Source: an uncultured virus (IMG/VR IMGVR_UViG_3300043395_001987) (taxonomy: Duplodnaviria > Heunggongvirae > Uroviricota > Caudoviricetes). From it: 20,000 bases of DNA. Under the pieces are notes generated by a model. It ran no database searches. It saw only the letters and a list, made by a program, of their open reading frames with translations, and was not told where the DNA came from. Each line of letters begins with the position of its first letter. The stretch's first letter is position 1. Made by a program: the position numbers and the translations under genes. This document shows, one piece after another, positions 4,726 to 15,338 of the stretch. The stretch spans positions 56,169-76,168 of the IMG/VR virus record IMGVR_UViG_3300043395_001987, one strand, 5' to 3'.

Positions 4726-5169
4726 ATGGCATATAAAGGTAAATTTAAACCTAAGTTCCCTGAAAAATATAGAGGGGATCCTACCAACATTATCTATAGA
4801 AGTCTTTGGGAGATGAGGTTCATGAGATATTTGGACCACCACCCAAGTGTTATGCAATGGGCTTCAGAAGAAGTTATTATTCCTTATATAAGTCCTATTG
4901 ATAAAAGAGTTCATAGATACTTTCCTGATTTTTGGGTAAAGATGAAGGCTGCAAATGGTGAAATAAATACTTTATTAATAGAAATTAAACCTTCTAAGCA
5001 AACTAAAATACCGATAAGACCTGAAAAATTAACTCGCAAATTTATTAACGAAGCCCGTACATATAGTGTCAATATAGCTAAGTGGAAAGCTGCACAAGAA
5101 TTTTGCGATGATAGAAAATGGCAATTTAAAGTACTTACAGAAAAAGAATTAGGATTAGATAAAATTTAA
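4726..5169 (+). CDS. gp4: Head completion protein gp4 (TnsA-like nuclease fold)
   Basis: MAYKGKFKPKFPEKYRGDPTNIIYRSLWE...WASEE...HRYFPDF...IEIKP...N.AKW.AA; typical gp4, adjacent to gp2. Confidence 0.92.
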   Translation: MAYKGKFKPKFPEKYRGDPTNIIYRSLWEMRFMRYLDHHPSVMQWASEEVIIPYISPIDKRVHRYFPDFWVKMKAANGEINTLLIEIKPSKQTKIPIRPEKLTRKFINEARTYSVNIAKWKAAQEFCDDRKWQFKVLTEKELGLDKI

Positions 5170-7240: not shown

Positions 7241-7390
7241 TATTACAATACGTTGTTTTCTTTAGTACATCACCATAAATATTCATTGACAGAGGTTTAT
7301 GATATGTATCCTTACGAAAGAGATCTATTTTTAGAATTGCTAATGATGCATATTAAGGACGTACAAGAAAGAAAGACACGTAATGGCTAA
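7214..7390 (+). CDS. gp51: gp51-like hub assembly catalyst (58 codons; TTG start or frameshift extension of gp26)
   Basis: Hand translation LTGYSNISVYYNTLFSLVHHHKYSLTEVYDMYPYERDLFLELLMMHIKDVQERKTRNG*. It matches the YY..NF.L..HHKYSL.E...M.P(W/Y)ER motif of small T4-like gp51 proteins. No ATG before the conserved motif. Confidence 0.8.
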   Translation: MTGYSNISVYYNTLFSLVHHHKYSLTEVYDMYPYERDLFLELLMMHIKDVQERKTRNG

Positions 7391-9746
7391 AAAAGAAACA
7401 GGCGAAGATATTCTCCGAGCTATTATGGAAAAAGGTGGTAAGGGTGGTGGTAGAGCTCAGCAAGCAGCTGCAGAGGCTCTTAATGATGCTGCTGAAAGTA
7501 TTAAAGAAAATACCAGACAACAGGCAAAAATTGGTGAAACCTTAGGTAACGTTTTTAATAATTTTAAAAATTCATTTTCCAGTGCTGGTGGTGGAGGCAG
7601 AGGTACGGGTGACGGAACAGGAGGCCTTGGTGGCCTTGGGGGCGGCGGAAGAAGAAATAATGTTCCAAATATATTATTAGATATCCTAAATGTAAATAGA
7701 AGTATCTTAAAATTTACTCATTCTAATAATGATGTTCTTTATGATATTCTTGACGCTATTCGTGGCAATGAAAGAAGTAAAATTGAAGAACGTAGAGAAA
7801 GATCCACAAGAACTCAACCTACTGAAGGTACAGGTGCAGGAATAGGCAAAACTTTAACTGGTGCTGGTAATCTCTTTGGTGGTATGGGTAATTTATTGAG
7901 TGGATTGGGTGGCGGACTAGGTAAACTACTTGGTGGTGCAGGCATTGCAGCTTTTCTTTTATCAGAAGCTGATGCAGAAAAAATCAAAAAAAATATTGAA
8001 ACCCTCTTATCAATTGGTGAGGGATATGAAAGCAAGCTTGATTTCCTAAAAGAAGGTGGAACTCTTGCTTTAATGTTATATGGAATAGGAACCGGTCTTT
8101 CTACATTTGCTATTGGACAATTTGCAAATGTTATTACTCAATGGACTACTGGATTTTTAGGTAAAGAAAATTGGGCTGAAACAGTAAAAGATAATGTTGC
8201 TGATCTTTTAGAAATAGCTAATTTACCAAATAGTAATGTAGGTAATGTTGCTTGGCTTACAACGGCTTTGGTTGGTATAGGAACAGGGTTAGCTGTTTTT
8301 GGAATTGGTAAAGGCGTTGAGGGTGGGATTGAAGGTATAGTAAAGGGAATAGATTTCTTTACAAAAGATCAACCATTTGCCCAGAGGTTAAAAGATGAAC
8401 TTGGAACTTTACTTTCAATAGCAGATTTACCACACCAAAATGACGCAGGATGGTTAGCAGGTGCTTTGACTAAAATAGGACTTGGTTTAAGTGTGTTTGC
8501 ATTAGGCAAAGGTTTAGAAGGTATTGCATATGCAGGTCAAGAAATAGTTGATTTCTTCACAGGACAACAACCCTTTGCACAAAGAATATATGATGAAGTA
8601 AAAACTCTATTATCAATTGCGGATATTCCTCATGCATCAGATGATGTAACATGGTTTGCTAATATGGCAGCAGGCATCACAGCCGGTTTGGGAGTATTTG
8701 CATTAGGAAAAGGGTTAGAAGGTGGCGTTAATGCTATAACTAGAATTGTTGATTTCTTCGCAGGTCAACAACCTTTTGCTGATAGAATTTATAATGAAGT
8801 AAAAACTTTATTATCAATTGCTGATATTCCTCACGCTTCTGAAAATGTAAATTGGTTTGCAGATGCAATGGCTGGTATAACTGCAGGACTTGGAGTGTTT
8901 GCATTAGGTAAGGGTTTAGAAGGCGGGGTCAATGCAGTAACCAAGATTATTGACTTTTTTACTGGAGATAAACCTTTTGCTCAGAGAATATATGATGAGG
9001 TTTCAAAATTATTATCAATTACTAAAATTGACGCAGATGGCAAATCTTTCTTCTTAACGATGTCTGATATAGCTGCTGGTCTTGCAGCCTTTACTGTATC
9101 AGACTTTGCAAGTTCATTAGTTAATGTCGGAACTAGTATTTTAAATTTTATATCCGGAAAAAGTAGCCCGTTTGATAAGATTAAAGAATTAGCTAATGAT
9201 GCTGATAAGTTAGAAAAAGGTGCCAATGCTTTAGAGAAAATTGCAAATGCATTGTCAACATTTTCTAATATTAAAACCGGTAATTTAGGTGATATTGATT
9301 TTGAAGGTATGGCAAAAAATCTAGGTCAAGCCATACCATTATTAAATGCTCTCGCAAATGGTGGAACTTTATCTGCAGGTGGTTTATTCAGTTGGCTTAA
9401 ATCAGATTTAGATTTTGGAAAAGGTATTCTTGATCCAAATCTAAAACTTGATCAGATGGCATCTGCAATTAGTAAGATTAACTACGTATTAGGTAGAACA
9501 ACTGATATAACACCTGTTCAAGGCAATGCTCAAAACGTAAATGCAGCAACTAGACAAAACGCTGTTGATGGTGAAAGTCAAGGTAATAACATCATAGTTG
9601 TACCACCAGCAAATGGAACTTCAAACGCTTCACGTGAACCACCTATGGTTCCTAGAAGTTCAGGGGCAGTTCAGACCGCCCCTGTTCCATCTTTATTTGA
9701 TCGTCATATGTACGATAGTGCTTACTTTGGTGCTGGACACCCTTAA
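7383..9746 (+). CDS. Tape measure / gp29-like baseplate hub tail-length protein
   Basis: 787 aa, Gly/Ala-rich helical, internal 64-67 aa repeats with hydrophobic segments, directly after gp26/gp51. Confidence 0.65.
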   Translation: MAKKETGEDILRAIMEKGGKGGGRAQQAAAEALNDAAESIKENTRQQAKIGETLGNVFNNFKNSFSSAGGGGRGTGDGTGGLGGLGGGGRRNNVPNILLDILNVNRSILKFTHSNNDVLYDILDAIRGNERSKIEERRERSTRTQPTEGTGAGIGKTLTGAGNLFGGMGNLLSGLGGGLGKLLGGAGIAAFLLSEADAEKIKKNIETLLSIGEGYESKLDFLKEGGTLALMLYGIGTGLSTFAIGQFANVITQWTTGFLGKENWAETVKDNVADLLEIANLPNSNVGNVAWLTTALVGIGTGLAVFGIGKGVEGGIEGIVKGIDFFTKDQPFAQRLKDELGTLLSIADLPHQNDAGWLAGALTKIGLGLSVFALGKGLEGIAYAGQEIVDFFTGQQPFAQRIYDEVKTLLSIADIPHASDDVTWFANMAAGITAGLGVFALGKGLEGGVNAITRIVDFFAGQQPFADRIYNEVKTLLSIADIPHASENVNWFADAMAGITAGLGVFALGKGLEGGVNAVTKIIDFFTGDKPFAQRIYDEVSKLLSITKIDADGKSFFLTMSDIAAGLAAFTVSDFASSLVNVGTSILNFISGKSSPFDKIKELANDADKLEKGANALEKIANALSTFSNIKTGNLGDIDFEGMAKNLGQAIPLLNALANGGTLSAGGLFSWLKSDLDFGKGILDPNLKLDQMASAISKINYVLGRTTDITPVQGNAQNVNAATRQNAVDGESQGNNIIVVPPANGTSNASREPPMVPRSSGAVQTAPVPSLFDRHMYDSAYFGAGHP
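8090..9110 (+). repeat. Intragenic tandem repeat, unit 192-201 nt, about 5 units
   Basis: GCATTAGG (VFALGKGLEG) recurs at 8499, 8700 and 8901 (201-nt period); diverged equivalents near 8106, 8301 and 9090. Confidence 0.9.
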
Positions 9747-10669
9747 TCAGAAGCTAACTTCTTAAAGAAGCTAAGATCCTCATCGTCTTCATCCCAAGGT
9801 GCTGAAGACTCTTGCTTAGCTGCTGGGATAGAAGGTGCAGGAGCTGCACGTTGAGGTGTTGGGAAAGCTTCATCTTCATCATCAAGAGAAGGAGCCATAC
9901 GCTGAGGTGAATCAGTGAGTGTTCCGAGAGCCTTCTCAAGACGCATCTTCAATTCTTCATATGACTTGAAGTGCTTTGCATCAAGAAGTTCTTGAAGTGA
10001 ATGTTGCTTACCCCAGATAGCTTTAATCTGCTCATCATCATTTGCAATAGAAGATGGTGAATCAAATTCAGACTTATCATAGTTACGATAGCCTTCTACC
10101 TGACGAATCTTCAACTTAAAGTTTGCTCCATCCCAGAAATCAAAAGGATTAACAGCCTTCTCATCTTGGAATTGTGGATGCATAGCTTCGTTGATCTTAT
10201 CAAAGATCTTTTTACCATACTTAAACAAGAATACCTTGCCTTCGTTTTCTGGACGAGTAGGATCCTTAATAACAAGAATGTTAGAGAAGTATGAAAGGCG
10301 ACGCTTTTGCTTGCGTACAATTTCCTTATTTGATTCAATACCAGAGTTCCAGAGTTTTGTGTTCATCTCTGATACTGGATCTGGTTTATTGAATGTGGTT
10401 AGGCTTTTTTCGATATACCAACCACCAGGACCTTGGAACCCATGGTCCCAAATGCGTACGAACGGCATGTCTTCACCAGCTGGGGCGGGAAGAAAACGAA
10501 TGATCGCATAGCCATTGCCGGCTTTGTCGACATCTGGTTTCCAGAAGCGATCGTCGTTGTTTGAACCGTCTTGTTGGGAAACTGTAGAATTGAGCTTGTT
10601 GAGCTCGGATGTGAGTTTGTCAAAGTTAGACTTACGATTTTGTTTAAGTGCTTCGAAATTAATAGTCAT
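9743..10669 (-). CDS. gp32: Single-stranded DNA-binding protein gp32
   Basis: DDRFWKP..DKAGNGYAIIRFLPAP...HGFQGPGGWYIE...EGKVFLFKYGKKIFDKI...GANFKLKIR..EGYRNYDKSEF, with an acidic tail. Confidence 0.97.
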   Translation of the reverse strand: MTINFEALKQNRKSNFDKLTSELNKLNSTVSQQDGSNNDDRFWKPDVDKAGNGYAIIRFLPAPAGEDMPFVRIWDHGFQGPGGWYIEKSLTTFNKPDPVSEMNTKLWNSGIESNKEIVRKQKRRLSYFSNILVIKDPTRPENEGKVFLFKYGKKIFDKINEAMHPQFQDEKAVNPFDFWDGANFKLKIRQVEGYRNYDKSEFDSPSSIANDDEQIKAIWGKQHSLQELLDAKHFKSYEELKMRLEKALGTLTDSPQRMAPSLDDEDEAFPTPQRAAPAPSIPAAKQESSAPWDEDDEDLSFFKKLASD

Positions 10670-10723
10670 AGTATTCTCCGTTGTGTTACGATATATTAAT
10701 TGTATGATACGTTGTATATGAAA

Positions 10724-11299
10724 TCACGAGAATTTATTTCTCAAGATCCCACAATATTTATCTTTATTATACTCCATAAAAGGGTATAATTTTTTACAGT
10801 TCATGGCAATTTGAGGCCATAGAACTGGGTCATTTATCTGCTTGTTCCAACTACCAAAGAATCGTACACAGTCTTGAATAATAATAAAGGATTCTTTGGT
10901 AATCTTTTTACGAACAAGCAAATTCAGTAGATAAGGATACCCACCATCGTCAGGTACCTTAAAATTCTCATCAAAATTTTCTAATAGATGATCTATATCT
11001 GATTCAAACATATATTGAAGTGTTTGCTTACGCCTCAAATAATCATTATATTTAAATTGATGATCTGTATTAAACATATCACCTATCCAAAGTTTTTGAT
11101 TCTCTGAAAGATTAGCAACCAGAAATGTCTTAGGATCTTCGTGTTTAGACAACTTATAAAACATATATTTGTCTTTGCGTGTTTCAAAAGAGTGTTCTGA
11201 AACGTTTGTTTTACCATTATACTTTACAAAATCATATGATGGTGAAGTAAAATGATTTTTCAAAGCTACAAATAATTTATAGGCTTCAAAAGGTGTCAT
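10724..11299 (-). CDS. gp59: Helicase loader gp59
   Basis: AYKLFVALKNHFT...YDFVKYNGK...F..RKDKY.FYKL; gp33-gp59-gp32 synteny. Confidence 0.92.
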   Translation of the reverse strand: MTPFEAYKLFVALKNHFTSPSYDFVKYNGKTNVSEHSFETRKDKYMFYKLSKHEDPKTFLVANLSENQKLWIGDMFNTDHQFKYNDYLRRKQTLQYMFESDIDHLLENFDENFKVPDDGGYPYLLNLLVRKKITKESFIIIQDCVRFFGSWNKQINDPVLWPQIAMNCKKLYPFMEYNKDKYCGILRNKFS

Positions 11300-11529
11300 A
11301 TAGGTAATCTACCCGATCTTCTTACAAGGTTAAGATTTTCAGCTTCTATTTGAATTTTTGCTTTTAATACTGTACTCTGTTTAATTAGTGAAGCAGCAGT
11401 TTCAACTTCAATGTTATTTGACTCACAGTAATGCATTACAGCGTCAAAATATGTCAAACCTTTAACTGAAGCTAACCTGTCAATTTCTTTTACAAAGTCA
11501 GCAGAGGATTTTATATTACTTATTTTCAT
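11296..11529 (-). CDS. gp33: Late transcription coactivator gp33
   Basis: YFDAVMHYCESNNIEVETAASLI...LKAKIQIEAENLN...LPI. Confidence 0.92.
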   Translation of the reverse strand: MKISNIKSSADFVKEIDRLASVKGLTYFDAVMHYCESNNIEVETAASLIKQSTVLKAKIQIEAENLNLVRRSGRLPI

Positions 11530-12685
11530 CTATATTTCTTTTAAATGCAAGTGTTATGTTTGTGCCACCAAAACCAAATGAATTATTGAGAACTATATTT
11601 TGTTCAGTTTCATATGGAACATTTGGTAGGAAAATTTCTTCTGATATGCTTTCGTCTTTTTCATCTAAATTCCAATTTGGAATTATTACACTATTTTCAA
11701 GAACAGTAATACAGGCTAATGATTCAATAGCACCGGCTGCACCAAATAAATGTCCGTGCAATCCTTTAGTAGAGCTGATGGGAATATTCGATGTATATTT
11801 ACCAAAAATATTTTCTATGCTTTTTAACTCTACAAGATCACCAATTGGTGTACCAGTTCCATGAGCATTAATATAAGTTACATCTTGAATATCAAAATCC
11901 TTTAAAGCAAGAGACATACATTTAACCTGGCCTTCAGTGTTTGGTTTAGTTACAGATTCAGAACCATTTGATACACCATATCCAACTATTTCACAATATA
12001 TTTTTGCATTTCTTGCAATAGCTTTATCGTAATTTTCTAGAATGAATATTACTGAACCTTCTGACATTGTAATACCATTTCTATTTTTAGAAAAGGGTTT
12101 ACAATCACTACTTAGCGCATTCATAGCTTTCCAATAGGCAAATTGCAATTCATTAATACAAGCCTCAGAACCACCAGCTGCTAGACAATCATATTCACCA
12201 TAAGCAATCTTCTTATAAGCTTCACCTATAGCTGTAGAGGAAGATGAACAAGCTGTCGAATAAGTAAAAGCGGGACCTTTTAAACCATCTTTAAGAGCTA
12301 TAAAGTTAGCACCCATATTAACAACAGAACAAATTAATGCAGAGGGTTTAACTTTTCCTTTTGCAAATAAAGATTTATATGACTCTTCATAAGCTATAGC
12401 ACCACCACCATATCCAACACCTAATAATATTCCCTCTGGATAATTGGAACTATCATTAATAGCATCTTTATAAGATAACCAAGCAAGCCTTGTAAACCTA
12501 TCTGTAATGTTTAGATCAAACCTATCAAAATGACTATCAACATCCTCAGAAACAACATAAGAAGATGAATCAAACATATCTTGTTTAGATCCAAATACAC
12601 CTCTTATAAATGAATTTTTTACTGTGGGGTAATCATTGCCAATTGGCGTTCTGCAACCTATACCTGTAATTGCAACTCTGTTCAT
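11516..12685 (-). CDS. Beta-ketoacyl-ACP synthase (FabF/NodE-like, Cys-His-His)
   Basis: RVAITGIG, TACSSS (catalytic Cys), INAHGTGT (His), STKGLHGHLFGAAG (Lys/His) and NSFGFGGTN are all intact. Confidence 0.95.
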   Translation of the reverse strand: MNRVAITGIGCRTPIGNDYPTVKNSFIRGVFGSKQDMFDSSSYVVSEDVDSHFDRFDLNITDRFTRLAWLSYKDAINDSSNYPEGILLGVGYGGGAIAYEESYKSLFAKGKVKPSALICSVVNMGANFIALKDGLKGPAFTYSTACSSSSTAIGEAYKKIAYGEYDCLAAGGSEACINELQFAYWKAMNALSSDCKPFSKNRNGITMSEGSVIFILENYDKAIARNAKIYCEIVGYGVSNGSESVTKPNTEGQVKCMSLALKDFDIQDVTYINAHGTGTPIGDLVELKSIENIFGKYTSNIPISSTKGLHGHLFGAAGAIESLACITVLENSVIIPNWNLDEKDESISEEIFLPNVPYETEQNIVLNNSFGFGGTNITLAFKRNIDENK

Positions 12686-12939
12686 TTATGATCCATATTA
12701 TCATAAATGTAATCAACTAATCCATTCAATGTTGTTGCAATGTCTTCTATTGTAATTGAATTTATTTCAAAAACATCTTCAAGTTCAAAAAGAATATTAA
12801 TGACTTCCATAGAATCTAATTTTTCATTTAATTCTTGAAGTCTGTTGAGAGGGAAATCACTATCTAAAACATTTATGTTAATATTATAATTTTTATTAAA
12901 GTAGGTAGCAATGGTTTCACGGATTTCATCTTTTGTCAT
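12682..12939 (-). CDS. Acyl carrier protein
   Basis: 85 aa, acidic, LDSMEVINILFELEDVFEI with the phosphopantetheine Ser and helix II. Start moved to ATG 12939 (GAGG at 12948-12945) because the longer ORF overlaps the tmRNA. ATGA overlap with the ketosynthase. Confidence 0.85.
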   Translation of the reverse strand: MTKDEIRETIATYFNKNYNININVLDSDFPLNRLQELNEKLDSMEVINILFELEDVFEINSITIEDIATTLNGLVDYIYDNMDHK

Positions 12940-12956
12940 CATAACCTCATAATAAA

Positions 12957-13243
12957 TGGTGGAGAGATTCTGTTTCCAAGCTCTCTCCGGGCTCATATCA
13001 AGCAGCGAGTGCTAGATTAGGTGCAAAGTTATCGTTTGCATTTAGTTTTGTCGCTTCAGTCTCGATCTTGTCTTTACTACACCTGTCGATCCTATTTCGC
13101 CCCCATCAAAGATACAGCAAAGAAGATTTATTTACTGCTGACTCTAATCTTCTATCCAGCATCACTTCTGTATCTATGGTGGAGGCGGAGGGTATCGCAC
13201 CCTCGTCCAGTATGTCTATTCTACTAGATGTCAACAACATCAG
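12957..13243 (-). ncRNA. ssrA: Two-piece (circularly permuted) tmRNA, alphaproteobacterial type
   Basis: Acceptor piece ends GGAC-GAGGG-TGCGATA-CCCTC-CGCCTCC-ACCA (13208-13177). A 72-nt intervening segment follows (13176-13105). The coding piece starts GGGGGCG-AAATAGGATCGAC at 13104, giving a 7-bp acceptor stem with G3.U70. Tag frame 13039-12998 encodes ANDNFAPNLALAA*. The 5' end is estimated from the promoter position. Confidence 0.93.
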
Positions 13244-13249
13244 CAATTA

Positions 13250-13280
13250 TATTTATAGCATATAATTAATTAAATGTCAA
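13250..13280 (-). promoter_or_regulatory. Composite sigma70 and T4-late promoter upstream of tmRNA
   Basis: TTGACA (13280-13275), 17 bp ending in TGC, then TATAAA(TA) (13257-13250): perfect -35, extended -10, and the -10 is also the exact late consensus TATAAATA. Confidence 0.8.
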
Positions 13281-13288
13281 CTGTAATT

Positions 13289-13990
13289 TTATACACCATT
13301 TCTGGTTCTATATACTTCACGCCAATGCATCAAATCTTTAACATAATAATCTCGACGATCCTCAAATACCTGAGGAGGTTCATTGTCAACCGAAATAAGA
13401 ATAACAATTCTACTTACGGGAATATTGAATCTTTCTTCGTACATAATAGCATAGGCAGAAGCTTGACAGAAGTAATTTAAAATATGATCTCTGTTTTTTA
13501 ATTTACGAGCTGTTTTAAAATCTATAATTGAAAGTTTACCTTTCCATTCAGCAACACAATCAACAGTGCCAGCCATCTTTAAATAATCAGAATAAAGTCT
13601 TACTTCTTGTAAATGTATGTTATCAATATTTCTATCCAACTCAGGTTTAAGTTCATTGAAATTAATGACATCATTAAAATTATATTTGCTTACATCTATC
13701 TCATTATTGTTTAGATAGTCTTCACACAACTGATGTATACGTGTTCCACGAGTAGCAGCTTGTGTGCTTATTTTATTGGCTTCTTCATTACCAACTCTTT
13801 TACGCCAAGCTCGAATCGCATCTTCACTCATTAATCCAGTTACAGTAGTCACAGAGGGATATAATTCACCGGAAGGAGTTTTATAATACCTTCCGGTGTC
13901 TGTATTGACTTGTTCTAATACATCCTCATTAAGGGTCTTTTTGAGATGAGTGAAGTGCTTGCGTTGGGCTAAAATGTCCTTGAGTAGCAT
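13289..13990 (-). CDS. PD-(D/E)XK exonuclease
   Basis: RYY.TP.G..YPSVTTV...RGTRIH...AGTVDCV...IIDFKT...Q..AYA; common partner of phoH in T4-like phages. Confidence 0.85.
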   Translation of the reverse strand: MLLKDILAQRKHFTHLKKTLNEDVLEQVNTDTGRYYKTPSGELYPSVTTVTGLMSEDAIRAWRKRVGNEEANKISTQAATRGTRIHQLCEDYLNNNEIDVSKYNFNDVINFNELKPELDRNIDNIHLQEVRLYSDYLKMAGTVDCVAEWKGKLSIIDFKTARKLKNRDHILNYFCQASAYAIMYEERFNIPVSRIVILISVDNEPPQVFEDRRDYYVKDLMHWREVYRTRNGV

Positions 13991-14729
13991 TATGTAATAT
14001 TCCGTTCTCTATCATATTTCTTTTAATTATAAAGTCTTTTACGAGACCGGATCTCACAATATCATTCTCGCTAAACTCAATACATGAAAAATATTTTGAC
14101 ATTCTATCAAGTATTTTCATAAATCTATGAATGCCTTCTTTTTCATCATCCCATTTTAAATCAGTTTGTCTATAATCTCCACAGAAAATAATCTTAGAGT
14201 TATGTCCGACTCGGGTGATGATTGTATTAAGTTCTTGATATGTCATATTTTGACATTCATCAACTATTATAATTGTATTGTCTAATGTAAGTCCTCTTAA
14301 GAAAGAAGATGTTTCAAATTGTATTAGATTTTTTTGTTTAAGTATTTCGTAAGCATCGCCTCTATTATAAAGCTGAGAGCATATTGCTTGATAGGGGGCT
14401 TCATATACTTTAGATTTTTCTTTTATGGAACCGGGTAAGAAACCCATATCTCGAGAGGGGACTACTGAGCGTATTATTGTAACACTATTATATTCTCTAT
14501 ACTCTTCTATTTCTGATAAGGCAAGATAAAGTGATATAAATGATTTGCCTGTACCAGGAAGACCGTGAATTAAAAGATTTTTACCATTAATAAATTCTTT
14601 AAATACTTTTTCTTGATTTAATGTTTTAGGTGTTACAGTCTTTAGTTCGAGGTTATTTTTTGTTTGTTTTTGCTCCTGACGCTTTTGTTGTTTCAGTAGT
14701 CTCTTTTCTGCGCGAGATAGTCTTTCCAT
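13929..14729 (-). CDS. phoH: PhoH-family ATPase
   Basis: Walker A GLPGTGKS, MGFLPG, FLRGLT, IIVDECQN, TRVG, GD..Q.D, IVRS. Start moved to ATG 14729 (GAGG at 14739-14736). Confidence 0.93.
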   Translation of the reverse strand: MERLSRAEKRLLKQQKRQEQKQTKNNLELKTVTPKTLNQEKVFKEFINGKNLLIHGLPGTGKSFISLYLALSEIEEYREYNSVTIIRSVVPSRDMGFLPGSIKEKSKVYEAPYQAICSQLYNRGDAYEILKQKNLIQFETSSFLRGLTLDNTIIIVDECQNMTYQELNTIITRVGHNSKIIFCGDYRQTDLKWDDEKEGIHRFMKILDRMSKYFSCIEFSENDIVRSGLVKDFIIKRNMIENGILHNATQGHFSPTQALHSSQKDP

Positions 14730-14742
14730 ATAGCACCTCGTG

Positions 14743-14979
14743 TTACCATGTGTTGATAGTATTATTCCTCCCACTAGCTTTTTTAACACGCTTTAAAACA
14801 TCACGAAACCCTCCATCAGGTTTTCTCAAACCTAATCGAGTTGGATCTGCAATAGCAGGAGCCGATAATACTTGTTGAAGATGTGGATTGTTTTCTATGT
14901 AGGTGTCTAGTTCAGAGATTGGCATTGAGATGTCAAACTCTTTGTTGGTCTTAGTATCGTAGAACGTATAATTAGCCAT
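14743..14979 (-). CDS. FmdB-like small protein (Cys-less variant)
   Basis: M..YTF.D.KT..EF...M.ISE...Y...NPH...GFRDVL pattern seen upstream of phoH in T4-like phages. Confidence 0.6.
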   Translation of the reverse strand: MANYTFYDTKTNKEFDISMPISELDTYIENNPHLQQVLSAPAIADPTRLGLRKPDGGFRDVLKRVKKASGRNNTINTW

Positions 14980-15169
14980 TAACTACTACACCCTTAGACT
15001 TCCAGTATGCCTGAATGTCATCTTTATTTAGGGGATCATACCCTTTAGAACGCATTTCTTCTTCAACTAAATCTTCCAAATAAGCCTTTTCATTAAGGTT
15101 TCTTGGATTGTAATATTCATCAATAATCTTATTAACTACTTCTTTGTTGCTATTAAGAATCTGAGACAC
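14972..15169 (-). CDS. Hypothetical protein
   Basis: 65-aa ORF overlapping both neighbours in the operon. Confidence 0.7.
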   Translation of the reverse strand: MSQILNSNKEVVNKIIDEYYNPRNLNEKAYLEDLVEEEMRSKGYDPLNKDDIQAYWKSKGVVVNG

Positions 15170-15338
15170 TTAACATCTCCCTAAGTTTGGTTTGAACTCT
15201 TTTTAATGCTTCTGGTTCGTGTTCTTTAAAAACTACTAGTGTTTCATGAACGCCTTTTTTATGGCCTTCAAACCAATAGTATACTGCTACAGCTGCTAAA
15301 AGCAGTGTATATAGAATTGCGCTTGTTAAATTGTCCAT
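15153..15338 (-). CDS. Hypothetical membrane protein
   Basis: N-terminal hydrophobic helix AILYTLLLAAVAVYYWF; TGATG coupling to the upstream gene. Confidence 0.7.
   Translation of the reverse strand: MDNLTSAILYTLLLAAVAVYYWFEGHKKGVHETLVVFKEHEPEALKRVQTKLREMLSVSDS

Follow-up and report, generated by a model that had tools for sequence, protein, structure and literature searches.

The 20,000-nucleotide (nt) stretch of DNA analysed here, called the window in the following, covers positions 56,169 to 76,168 of the IMG/VR virus record IMGVR_UViG_3300043395_001987 and comes from an uncultured freshwater T4-like phage whose minus strand encodes an acyl carrier protein (ACP) together with a β-ketoacyl-ACP synthase, or ketosynthase (KS). 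We read the two genes as an intact and phage-owned pair of a private carrier and a condensing enzyme, which would act as a chain-extension module by borrowing enzymes from the host, and we give this reading a probability of roughly 55%. Judged by its gene content, the pair is the minimal form, devoid of desaturase and phosphopantetheinyl transferase (PPTase), of what appears to be a virus-specific acyl cassette.

The carrier protein and its coupling to the ketosynthase

The ACP gene (12682-12939, minus strand) encodes 85 amino acids (aa) and is followed by the KS gene (11516-12685, minus strand, 389 aa), which we assign to an elongating β-ketoacyl-ACP synthase of a virus-specific clade. The stop codon of the ACP gene and the start codon of the KS gene share the bases ATGA, which is a 4-nt overlap, and the 3' end of the KS gene overlaps the start of gp33 by 14 nt. 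Translation of the ACP is taken to begin at the ATG at 12939, which has a GAGG 5 nt before it, and an M-T-(R/K) start is common to all 12 aligned ACP homologues. A longer open reading frame (ORF), 12682-12996, was rejected as the true start because it extends into a transfer-messenger RNA (tmRNA), the end of which lies 18 nt from the ACP start. When the ORFs and translations were checked, the initial annotation of the window proved correct on coordinates, strand, coupling and the 14-nt overlap, and the strings that it had quoted (YWKAMNALSSDCKPFSKNRNG, STKGLHGH, GGTNITLAF and LDSM) were all found.

Evidence from residues, profile and fold agrees that the 85-aa protein is an ACP, and its phosphopantetheinylation is predicted. 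The phosphopantetheine-site serine would be Ser43 in the motif K-L-D-S-M, and in an alignment of viral ACP homologues (n = 13) the residues Lys40, Asp42, Ser43 and Glu54 are invariant. In alignments Ser43 takes the place of the DSL serine found in E. coli AcpP and in the ACPs encoded upstream of NodE. The profile of the family matches solved ACPs (best 2n50_A, E 6.5e-10), and inspection of the names of its structure matches gave ACPs or complex-I ACP subunits and one “putative uncharacterized protein”. In the AlphaFold (AF2) model, which has a predicted local distance difference test (pLDDT) score of 86.8, helices are formed by residues 3-18, 31-36, 43-56, 64-67 and 71-81, placing Ser43 at the start of the recognition helix 43-56. 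A Foldseek search with the model returned nearly exclusively carrier proteins or carrier-containing complexes as top chains, with template modelling (TM) scores of 0.56-0.77 and, for this small protein, no E-value better than 0.0096. The window ACP thus has the D-S-(L/M/I) serine at the N-terminus of helix II of a four-helix bundle (D42-S43 in 13 of 13 sequences), and the DSM serine motif on which the initial annotation had based its ACP is borne out by the invariance of Ser43, the profile and the predicted fold.

The ketosynthase

The KS matches PF00109 with 120.7 bits and PF02801 with 112.2 bits, both above the cut-off of 20.8. Cys146, His275, Lys307, His312 and the gating Phe370 align with the corresponding residues of E. 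coli FabF and FabB and are kept in 30 of 30 rows of the viral clade described below, and the catalytic residues are invariant across an alignment of 24 KS sequences (A1). The Cys-His-His residues, which had been called intact beforehand, are indeed so in the window KS and throughout the clade. Since the full catalytic set is found in the KS and in all 30 clade rows, the protein looks, as far as residues can tell, like a competent elongating condensing enzyme. It is 36% identical to E. coli FabF, 33% to FabB and 34% to Sinorhizobium meliloti NodE.

Housekeeping FabF (KAS II), which works with AcpP, shares with the phage KS the fold family, the catalytic residues and the best pairwise scores; the best-scoring solved relatives of the KS are FabF enzymes (3o04_A, 245.8 bits), and its best NCBIfam model is fabF, though below the cut-off. 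On the FabF equivalog model TIGR03150 (cut-off 493.75) the KS reaches 320.7 bits, whereas E. coli FabF, Heliorestis FabF and S. meliloti NodE reach 650.9, 642.4 and 428.8 bits, and on the subfamily model PRK07314 it reaches 310.6 bits against a cut-off of 387. Several loop deletions also make the phage KS 24 residues shorter than the FabF of E. coli, and at residue 185 it has Trp where housekeeping FabF has Phe.

Viral relatives and the wider acyl cassette

A search of IMG/VR with the KS gave six loci of 71-100% identity, all with the gene order PhoH - PD-(D/E)XK - ACP - KS - gp33 - gp59 - gp32. With a profile of 24 sequences, 193 relatives were found in IMG/VR, the best 80 of which comprise 25 at 44-100% and 55 at 31-42% identity. 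The same profile, used on 185,579 prokaryote species (GTDB, one genome each) in a scan that rests on two motifs, found at least 601 relatives, and the best 80 of these are all 32-38% identical. Among the 120 matches listed from a search of 5.8 billion proteins, 22 are 71-91% identical and 49 full-length proteins and two fragments are 45-54% identical; the remaining listed matches do not exceed 41% and, like cellular FabF, are 408-423 aa long, except for one of 543 aa. A search of protein representatives recovered P0125 (53%) and P0068 (49%) among multi-KS polyketide megasynthases, whose summed scores outrank those of single KSs. In a tblastn search with the KS among 50,697 GenBank phage records (INPHARED), 28 records matched, none of them with more than 38.5% identity and none belonging to the viral clade; most are unannotated short contigs with a host-type fabF.

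The ACP gene precedes the KS gene in 21 of the 25 viral-clade loci and the other four are cut at the 5' end, so that the pair is found in 21 of 21 loci with enough upstream sequence. A membrane fatty-acid desaturase (PF00487) belongs to the cassette in 20 of the 25, in most cases between ACP and KS, after KS in L004 and L005, and as three tandem copies in L025. In seven of the 25 loci an AcpS-like gene of 109-113 aa overlaps the ACP start (PF01648, 19.3-23.0 bits, below the cut-off of 25), which is an indirect pointer to phosphopantetheinylation. The start/stop overlaps between cassette genes are mostly 4 nt, and the architectures among the fetched loci include AcpS-ACP-desaturase-KS and ACP-three desaturases-KS-PF10118. 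Seven loci (L011-L017) carry ACP-desaturase-KS with no gp33, gp59 or gp32 nearby, and the trio is therefore also found in another phage background. Relatives of the window KS are moreover adjoined by 2-oxoglutarate (2OG)-Fe(II) oxygenases along with PF00487 desaturases. The linkage to desaturase and AcpS-like genes places the pair in the chemistry of fatty-acyl chains, with a carrier in need of activation. An ACP plus condensing enzyme pair in a phage, which had been regarded as unfamiliar, is thus real, but it is no lone oddity, as it recurs in 21 of the 25 viral loci and usually together with desaturases.

The initial annotation had also raised the idea of a decoy, by which the two proteins would act as a non-catalytic decoy or inhibitor, titrating ACP-dependent enzymes or defence systems of the host. 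No result of the analysis speaks for this role. We consider it very improbable, given that the full catalytic set is kept in all 30 clade members at a divergence down to 44% identity, that Ser43 is invariant, and that the cassettes of relatives add co-translated AcpS-like and desaturase genes to the pair.

For the phage of the window itself, six-frame searches found neither PF00487 nor an AcpS-like protein in the 76-kb record, in a 118-kb twin contig or in the 110-kb L006 contig (47%, 69% and 68% complete, respectively); the same search does find the desaturase in the contig of L005. A Pfam scan of 69 ORFs of the 76-kb record gave no FabD, FabG, FabZ/A, FabI, FabH, acyltransferase, thioesterase or PPTase, which extends to the record the earlier remark that PPTase and acyltransferase are not visible in the window.

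Three further cassette neighbours were noted in the relatives. A “predicted metal-dependent hydrolase” (PF10118, 119.9 bits) overlaps the KS end at L025:7152-7784 and L024:1906-2538, in loci with three tandem desaturases. In nine loci (L010, L018-L023, L040 and L067; for example L021:6069-6647 and L010:4014-4724) the KS stop is overlapped by the gene of a conserved 192-236-aa protein that matches no Pfam family; a further homologue lies about 2.7 kb downstream of the KS in L016, and the protein could be another member of the cassette. In the non-T4 context of L011 (7599-7820) and L014 (7859-8077), an ORF of 72-73 aa lies a few hundred bases downstream, which by eye we take to resemble translation initiation factor IF-1.

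Phylogeny of the ketosynthase and comparison with NodE

The initial annotation had called for a phylogeny of the KS, and in the resulting tree of 78 rows (IQ-TREE “quick”, LG+C20+F+G4) the protein falls outside ordinary FabF. The window KS falls together with 29 other KSs, of viral or metagenomic origin, in a single clade with a Shimodaira-Hasegawa-like approximate likelihood ratio (SH-aLRT) support of 100, and this clade joins, with support 95, FabF-like paralogs of beta- and gammaproteobacteria (Methylophilaceae, Burkholderiales and the “FabF 2” of Ferriphaselus). The adjoining clade holds three NodE sequences and NodE-like proteins of Rhodobacterales. A branch with support 99 parts the resulting clade of 66 rows from housekeeping FabF (E. 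coli, Firmicutes), three basal viral-contig rows and FabB. All 66 rows of this large clade have Trp at residue 185 and all 12 rows outside it have Phe, so that this residue follows the split exactly; an H-x-H after STK is found in 57 of the 66. When the viral and housekeeping FabF sequences were forced together, the approximately unbiased (AU) test on this quick tree gave a log-likelihood difference of 34.3 and p 0.018; forcing the viral and NodE sequences together gave 35.5 and a borderline p 0.047, likewise on the quick tree.

The KS genes of the beta/gammaproteobacterial sister group have an ACP ORF of their own upstream in four of four loci examined (L090, L093, L111 and L112). These ORFs, of which the one in L111 was tested against PF00550, have a DSL or DSF motif and end at the KS start, overlap it or stop 11 nt before it. 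The neighbouring genes encode an aminotransferase, FAD oxidoreductases, a type III polyketide synthase and hydrolases, and not fabD or fabG. In the quick tree the viral KSs group with dedicated ACP-KS pairs and not with housekeeping FabF.

These results have to be held against a simpler explanation, in which the phage boosts type II fatty acid synthesis (FAS II) of the host by extra FabF-type elongation and an extra carrier for ordinary phospholipid synthesis, with no distinct product. The FabF structures and fabF model as best matches, the retention of all FabF catalytic residues and the failure to find a tailoring enzyme among the 69 scanned ORFs of this phage are what such a booster would lead us to expect. 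It is nevertheless unlikely, since the KS scores far below the housekeeping FabFs, and also below NodE, on TIGR03150 and is set apart from the housekeeping clade by the AU test, and since a mere copy of FabF would have no need to be inherited strictly together with a private ACP that evolves fast (30-54% identity, against 71-76% for the KS). Relatives moreover couple the pair to desaturases. Housekeeping FabF was consequently rejected as the identity of the KS on the sub-cut-off TIGR03150 and PRK07314 scores, Trp185 and the AU test, in agreement with the initial annotation, which had set the KS apart from this enzyme.

The likeness to NodE, which the initial annotation had placed in the foreground, is only in part upheld. 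The rhizobial NodF/NodE genes share with the phage locus the ACP-then-KS order and the start/stop coupling, and NodE shares with the phage KS the Trp185, the H-x-H after STK, the short loop after A-L-S and the membership in the 66-row clade. These traits are all real, but the Trp marks the wider clade, and the short loop is common to NodE and 19 of the 30 viral rows and is not found in the sister group. NodE, which is 34% identical to the phage KS, forms a clade of its own elsewhere, whereas the sister of the phage KSs is the beta/gammaproteobacterial group; NodE also scores higher than the phage KS on TIGR03150, and the 69 scanned ORFs of the 76-kb record (47% complete) show neither a nod context nor an acyltransferase of the NodA type. 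A true NodE was therefore rejected, the KS lying outside the NodE clade with the borderline AU result given above and having no nod context.

NodFE relies only on the reductase and dehydratase of housekeeping fatty acid synthesis for making its special chains, and the phage pair would presumably depend on those of its host in the same way. This opens for a NodFE-like specialist function, in which an unusual chain (polyunsaturated or of odd length) is made for an acceptor other than phospholipid, e.g. lipid A or lipopolysaccharide (LPS), a lipoprotein, a signal or a virion component, the rationale being that host reductases handle intermediates on a private ACP differently. The position of the KS in the Trp185 clade, with NodE and the dedicated ACP-KS pairs of non-housekeeping clusters, fits such a role, as do the modest needs of NodFE and the LPS-type sugar genes in the same record; the sugar genes, however, lie more than 45 kb from the pair, no acyltransferase or thioesterase for transfer of the chain was found among the 69 ORFs, and the KS is not a member of the NodE clade. 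We regard this function, too, as rather improbable, and prefer the chain-extension module.

Authenticity of the locus

Near-identical DNA, measured as at least half of 197 sampled words, was found in nine sequencing runs, two of which may be the source itself; the other seven represent six studies, with metagenomes of freshwater, reservoir, aquatic or estuary samples. In run X3 the stretches 10700-12120 and 12132-13214 are covered by contigs with zero differences, and contigs of run X7 cover 11379-11772 and 12075-12834. Because contigs from other runs bridge, without a difference, the gp33/KS as well as the KS/ACP/tmRNA junction, the locus is no assembly chimera, a possibility that the initial annotation had itself raised. 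Variant sites in other runs, which count in favour of the chain-extension module, number 17 in the KS, of which 11 are synonymous and six are conservative replacements; the ACP has a single Leu-to-Met change.

That host contamination or chimeric assembly should have placed bacterial fab genes in phage DNA was worth considering, as most KS matches in the “phage” database resemble host contigs. The chance of such an artefact is next to nil: both junctions are bridged in independent studies, the synteny is common to six IMG/VR contigs, none of the best 80 GTDB matches exceeds 38% identity, and the GC content of the cassette (0.27-0.35) is that of its flanks. The equal GC content also argues that the pair is not a recent arrival.

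Genomic setting of the pair

From 9743 to 14789 every gene is on the minus strand. In reading order, PhoH (13929-14789; PF02562, 144.8 bits) is followed by a PD-(D/E)XK nuclease (13289-13990) and by a two-piece (permuted) tmRNA of the alpha type (12958-13278; Rfam RF01849 124 bits, RF04321 111.8 bits; ARAGORN tag ANDNFAPNLALAA), all on the minus strand, the tmRNA forming the upstream boundary of the cassette. The downstream boundary is gp33, the late-transcription coactivator (11296-11529, minus strand; PF16805, 64.8 bits), after which come gp59 (10724-11299, minus strand; PF08993) and gp32 (9743-10669, minus strand; PF08804). The Pfam matches bear out the earlier naming of gp33, gp59 and gp32, and these genes do adjoin the cassette downstream as described; the immediate upstream neighbour is the tmRNA, which had been missed. 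An Rfam scan of the window revealed no glutamine riboswitch and no further family at gathering score besides the tmRNA. A scan of 9500-15200 for promoters and terminators gave nothing above expectation, with 23 promoter-like sites (24.5 expected) and two terminator-like sites (2.4 expected).

Using gp59 as probe, 80 related loci of 44-100% identity were fetched, 51 of which show the whole interval with the PD-(D/E)XK gene and gp33. The pair is missing from the gp59 relatives closest to the window, L202 and L203 (90%) and L204 and L205 (82%), and a fourth locus with KS (L250), in addition to the three complete ones mentioned in the Discussion, is cut upstream. In ten loci (L214, L257-L259 and L261-L266) the tmRNA abuts or overlaps the gp33 start, and for phage Melnitz the published description likewise places the tmRNA directly upstream of the coactivator (PMC9004378). 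In other relatives (L202-L278) the interval contains 2OG-Fe(II) oxygenases (PF13640, PF13759), DUF3310, DUF6065, endonuclease VII, SprT-like proteins, a cell-wall hydrolase or a PurT-like ATP-grasp enzyme. The ACP-KS pair is thus an optional passenger of a hot spot between tmRNA and gp33, and since the content of this island is flexible and those closest relatives do without the pair, it was fair to describe the cassette as inserted. Two joints that skip ACP and KS and connect the gp33 start directly to the tmRNA end, 11529->12959 in run X6 (where 25 other letters intervene) and 11507->12954 in run X7, rest on a shorter side of only 25 letters at 90% likeness and give a weak hint of cassette-less variants, in agreement with the IMG/VR survey. 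The KS tree roughly tracks gp32, as loci in the KS group of 71-76% identity have gp32 proteins of 75-90% and the T4-like loci in the distant KS group (44-53%) have gp32 proteins of 52-63%.

The phage and its other genes

Its proteins show the phage to be a T4-like myovirus that is distant from all isolates. The best match of gp32 is 54.5% identical (cyanophage S-CAM8) and that of gp6 38.5% (Stenotrophomonas phage DLP_6, Caulobacter phage Cr30 and rhizobial phages), with 34.4% for the gp6 of Melnitz. A 20-nt word from the tag region of the tmRNA was found in 29 stretches, mostly of diverse Alphaproteobacteria with a few odd bins, and a blastn search of phages with the tmRNA gave no more than 52 nt that match the SsrA of Pelagibacter phage Mosig and 32-nt matches to tmRNAs of Cellulophaga phages. 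From the alpha type of its tmRNA we would expect the phage to have, or once to have had, an alphaproteobacterial host.

Elsewhere in the window, the interval between the baseplate genes and gp32 encodes a 787-aa protein (7383-9746, plus strand) that matches no Pfam family and shows little conservation among relatives; its N-terminus is rich in Gly, and a unit of about 60 aa (…FTGQQPFAQRIYDEVKTLLSIADIPHAS…) is repeated about five times inside it. Among the baseplate and tail-tube genes an N-terminal domain of a TnsA-like endonuclease (PF08722, 86.1 bits; 4726-5169, plus strand) may represent an insert of the homing-endonuclease type. The LPS-type sugar genes of the same phage (G000:C1 6272-9552 (L007) and 36743-39529 (L281:244-3030)) encode an HldE-like fusion of PfkB kinase and cytidylyltransferase, an NAD-dependent epimerase, a GT25 LPS glycosyltransferase and a 928-aa fusion of GT1 and GT2. 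Its tail-fibre region (G000:C1 11409-16079 (L007); L008 6048-17679) encodes a 1556-aa RCC1-repeat protein (PF25390, 600.6 bits) and collagen-repeat proteins of 1654 and 1457 aa.

Discussion

Above we described a coupled ACP-KS pair that is intact, virus-borne and distinct from housekeeping FabF, and from this we infer the following scheme for its loading by host enzymes, its substrate and product, and its benefit to the phage. Host AcpS would add phosphopantetheine to Ser43 of the phage ACP, and host FabD would load malonate onto it. An acyl primer would be taken onto Cys146 of the KS and condensed with malonyl-ACP in a decarboxylative Claisen reaction involving His275 and His312, after which host FabG, FabZ/FabA and FabI would complete each cycle. 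A pool of acyl chains bound to a carrier outside host regulation would result, by which the chain length and/or unsaturation of the lipids in the infected cell could be shifted; in most relatives the same pool would be further tailored by the co-translated membrane desaturases. The proposal of the initial annotation, a minimal module diverting host FAS II, survives in so far as the pair is intact, coupled and not ordinary FabF; it has to be modified in that the KS is not NodE and the pair is part of a larger cassette.

Several observations weigh against the chain-extension module. The enzymatic activity of the pair is predicted from its genes. The window ACP reaches only 15.9 bits on PF00550 (cut-off 20.8) and 21.4 bits on the NCBIfam ACP model (cut-off 66); PF00550 is found at E ≤ 0.1 in ten of the 13 family members, and the homologue in L011 passes its cut-off with 26.4 bits. 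The viral ACPs have an insertion of four to five residues directly before the DS motif relative to AcpP and the ACPs in NodF position, and loading by host AcpS is therefore not assured. An AcpS-like gene, a desaturase, a reductase, a dehydratase and an acyltransferase were all looked for and not found in the 47%-complete record. The stem of the viral KS clade in the quick tree is long (1.01 changes per column), the cellular rows of the tree were picked by motifs drawn from viral proteins, and the groups for the AU test were named after the tree had been seen. The KS is also rare, being present in three of the 51 complete intervals (L201, a window-like contig, L210 and L211), and the pair is therefore dispensable. 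Finally, expression is represented by two 151-nt contigs of depth 2 from the RNA library run X18, covering 12537-12687 (KS start) and 12706-12856 (ACP); elsewhere in the window this run gives no cover except a short joint-spanning contig in the tmRNA region, and as the library may hold DNA, the contigs are a weak hint of transcription.

Part of the wider cassette has been met before. Zaragoza-Solas et al. 2020 (PMC7029224) reported a “fabF”, a stearoyl-CoA desaturase and a 2OG/Fe(II)-dependent dioxygenase (2OGFeDO) protein as unique to freshwater pelagimyophages of group PMP-D, so that a FabF-type gene in such phages is not unique to the phage described here. Both are T4-like aquatic myoviruses with a FabF-type KS, the desaturases and 2OG-Fe(II) oxygenases adjoining relatives of the window KS make up the same trio as in the description of PMP-D, and the freshwater, reservoir and estuary origin of window-like DNA compares with the freshwater origin of PMP-D in that paper. 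The passages of PMC7029224 on fabF amount to one sentence, and in them no mention of ACP, AcpS, phylogeny or tmRNA was found. The present phage has KS and ACP and no desaturase, in difference from PMP-D as there described, and we infer that the KSs belong to one family from a comparison of descriptions only. A survey of Rhodobacteraceae prophages reported fabG-acpP-fabF, in the gene order of the host, in three predicted prophages (PMC8224337), and a study of Lake Baikal discussed a viral acyl-CoA desaturase. Lipid desaturases of cyanophages (Roitman et al. 2018, as cited in PMC8224337) are likewise auxiliary genes of aquatic T4-like phages that act on fatty-acyl chains of the host; according to that citation these are lone desaturases, whereas the phage of the window has a condensing enzyme and a carrier, and no desaturase was found in it. 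Our literature search found no description of an ACP-KS pair in a phage. Collectively, the finding is real and the pair intact, the fuller cassette is partly in print, and the minimal form is new.

Phage lipid genes are known mostly as lone desaturases, and a KS with its own carrier is of interest as it can start or redirect the building of chains and not merely retouch existing lipids. Few close relatives carry the module, yet several studies have metagenomes from freshwater, reservoirs and estuaries that contain it, and its benefit may thus depend on the niche. The main value of this smallest form of the module lies in being the simplest test case for a core of carrier and KS, and since it comes with no desaturase, activating enzyme or other fatty-acid gene, it is the cleanest construct for studying core function. 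As a tentative extension, of which we are doubtful, the viral KS-ACP pairs could be an old, distinct and virus-maintained branch of the dedicated-carrier systems that, alone and NodFE-like, drive host FAS II to an acyl chain foreign to the host, e.g. conjugated-unsaturated or length-shifted. If so, the desaturase-less form would show that carrier and condensing enzyme are the functional core of a phage-specific lipid pathway, the product of which would alter the envelope of the infected cell or act as a lipid effector made by the phage.

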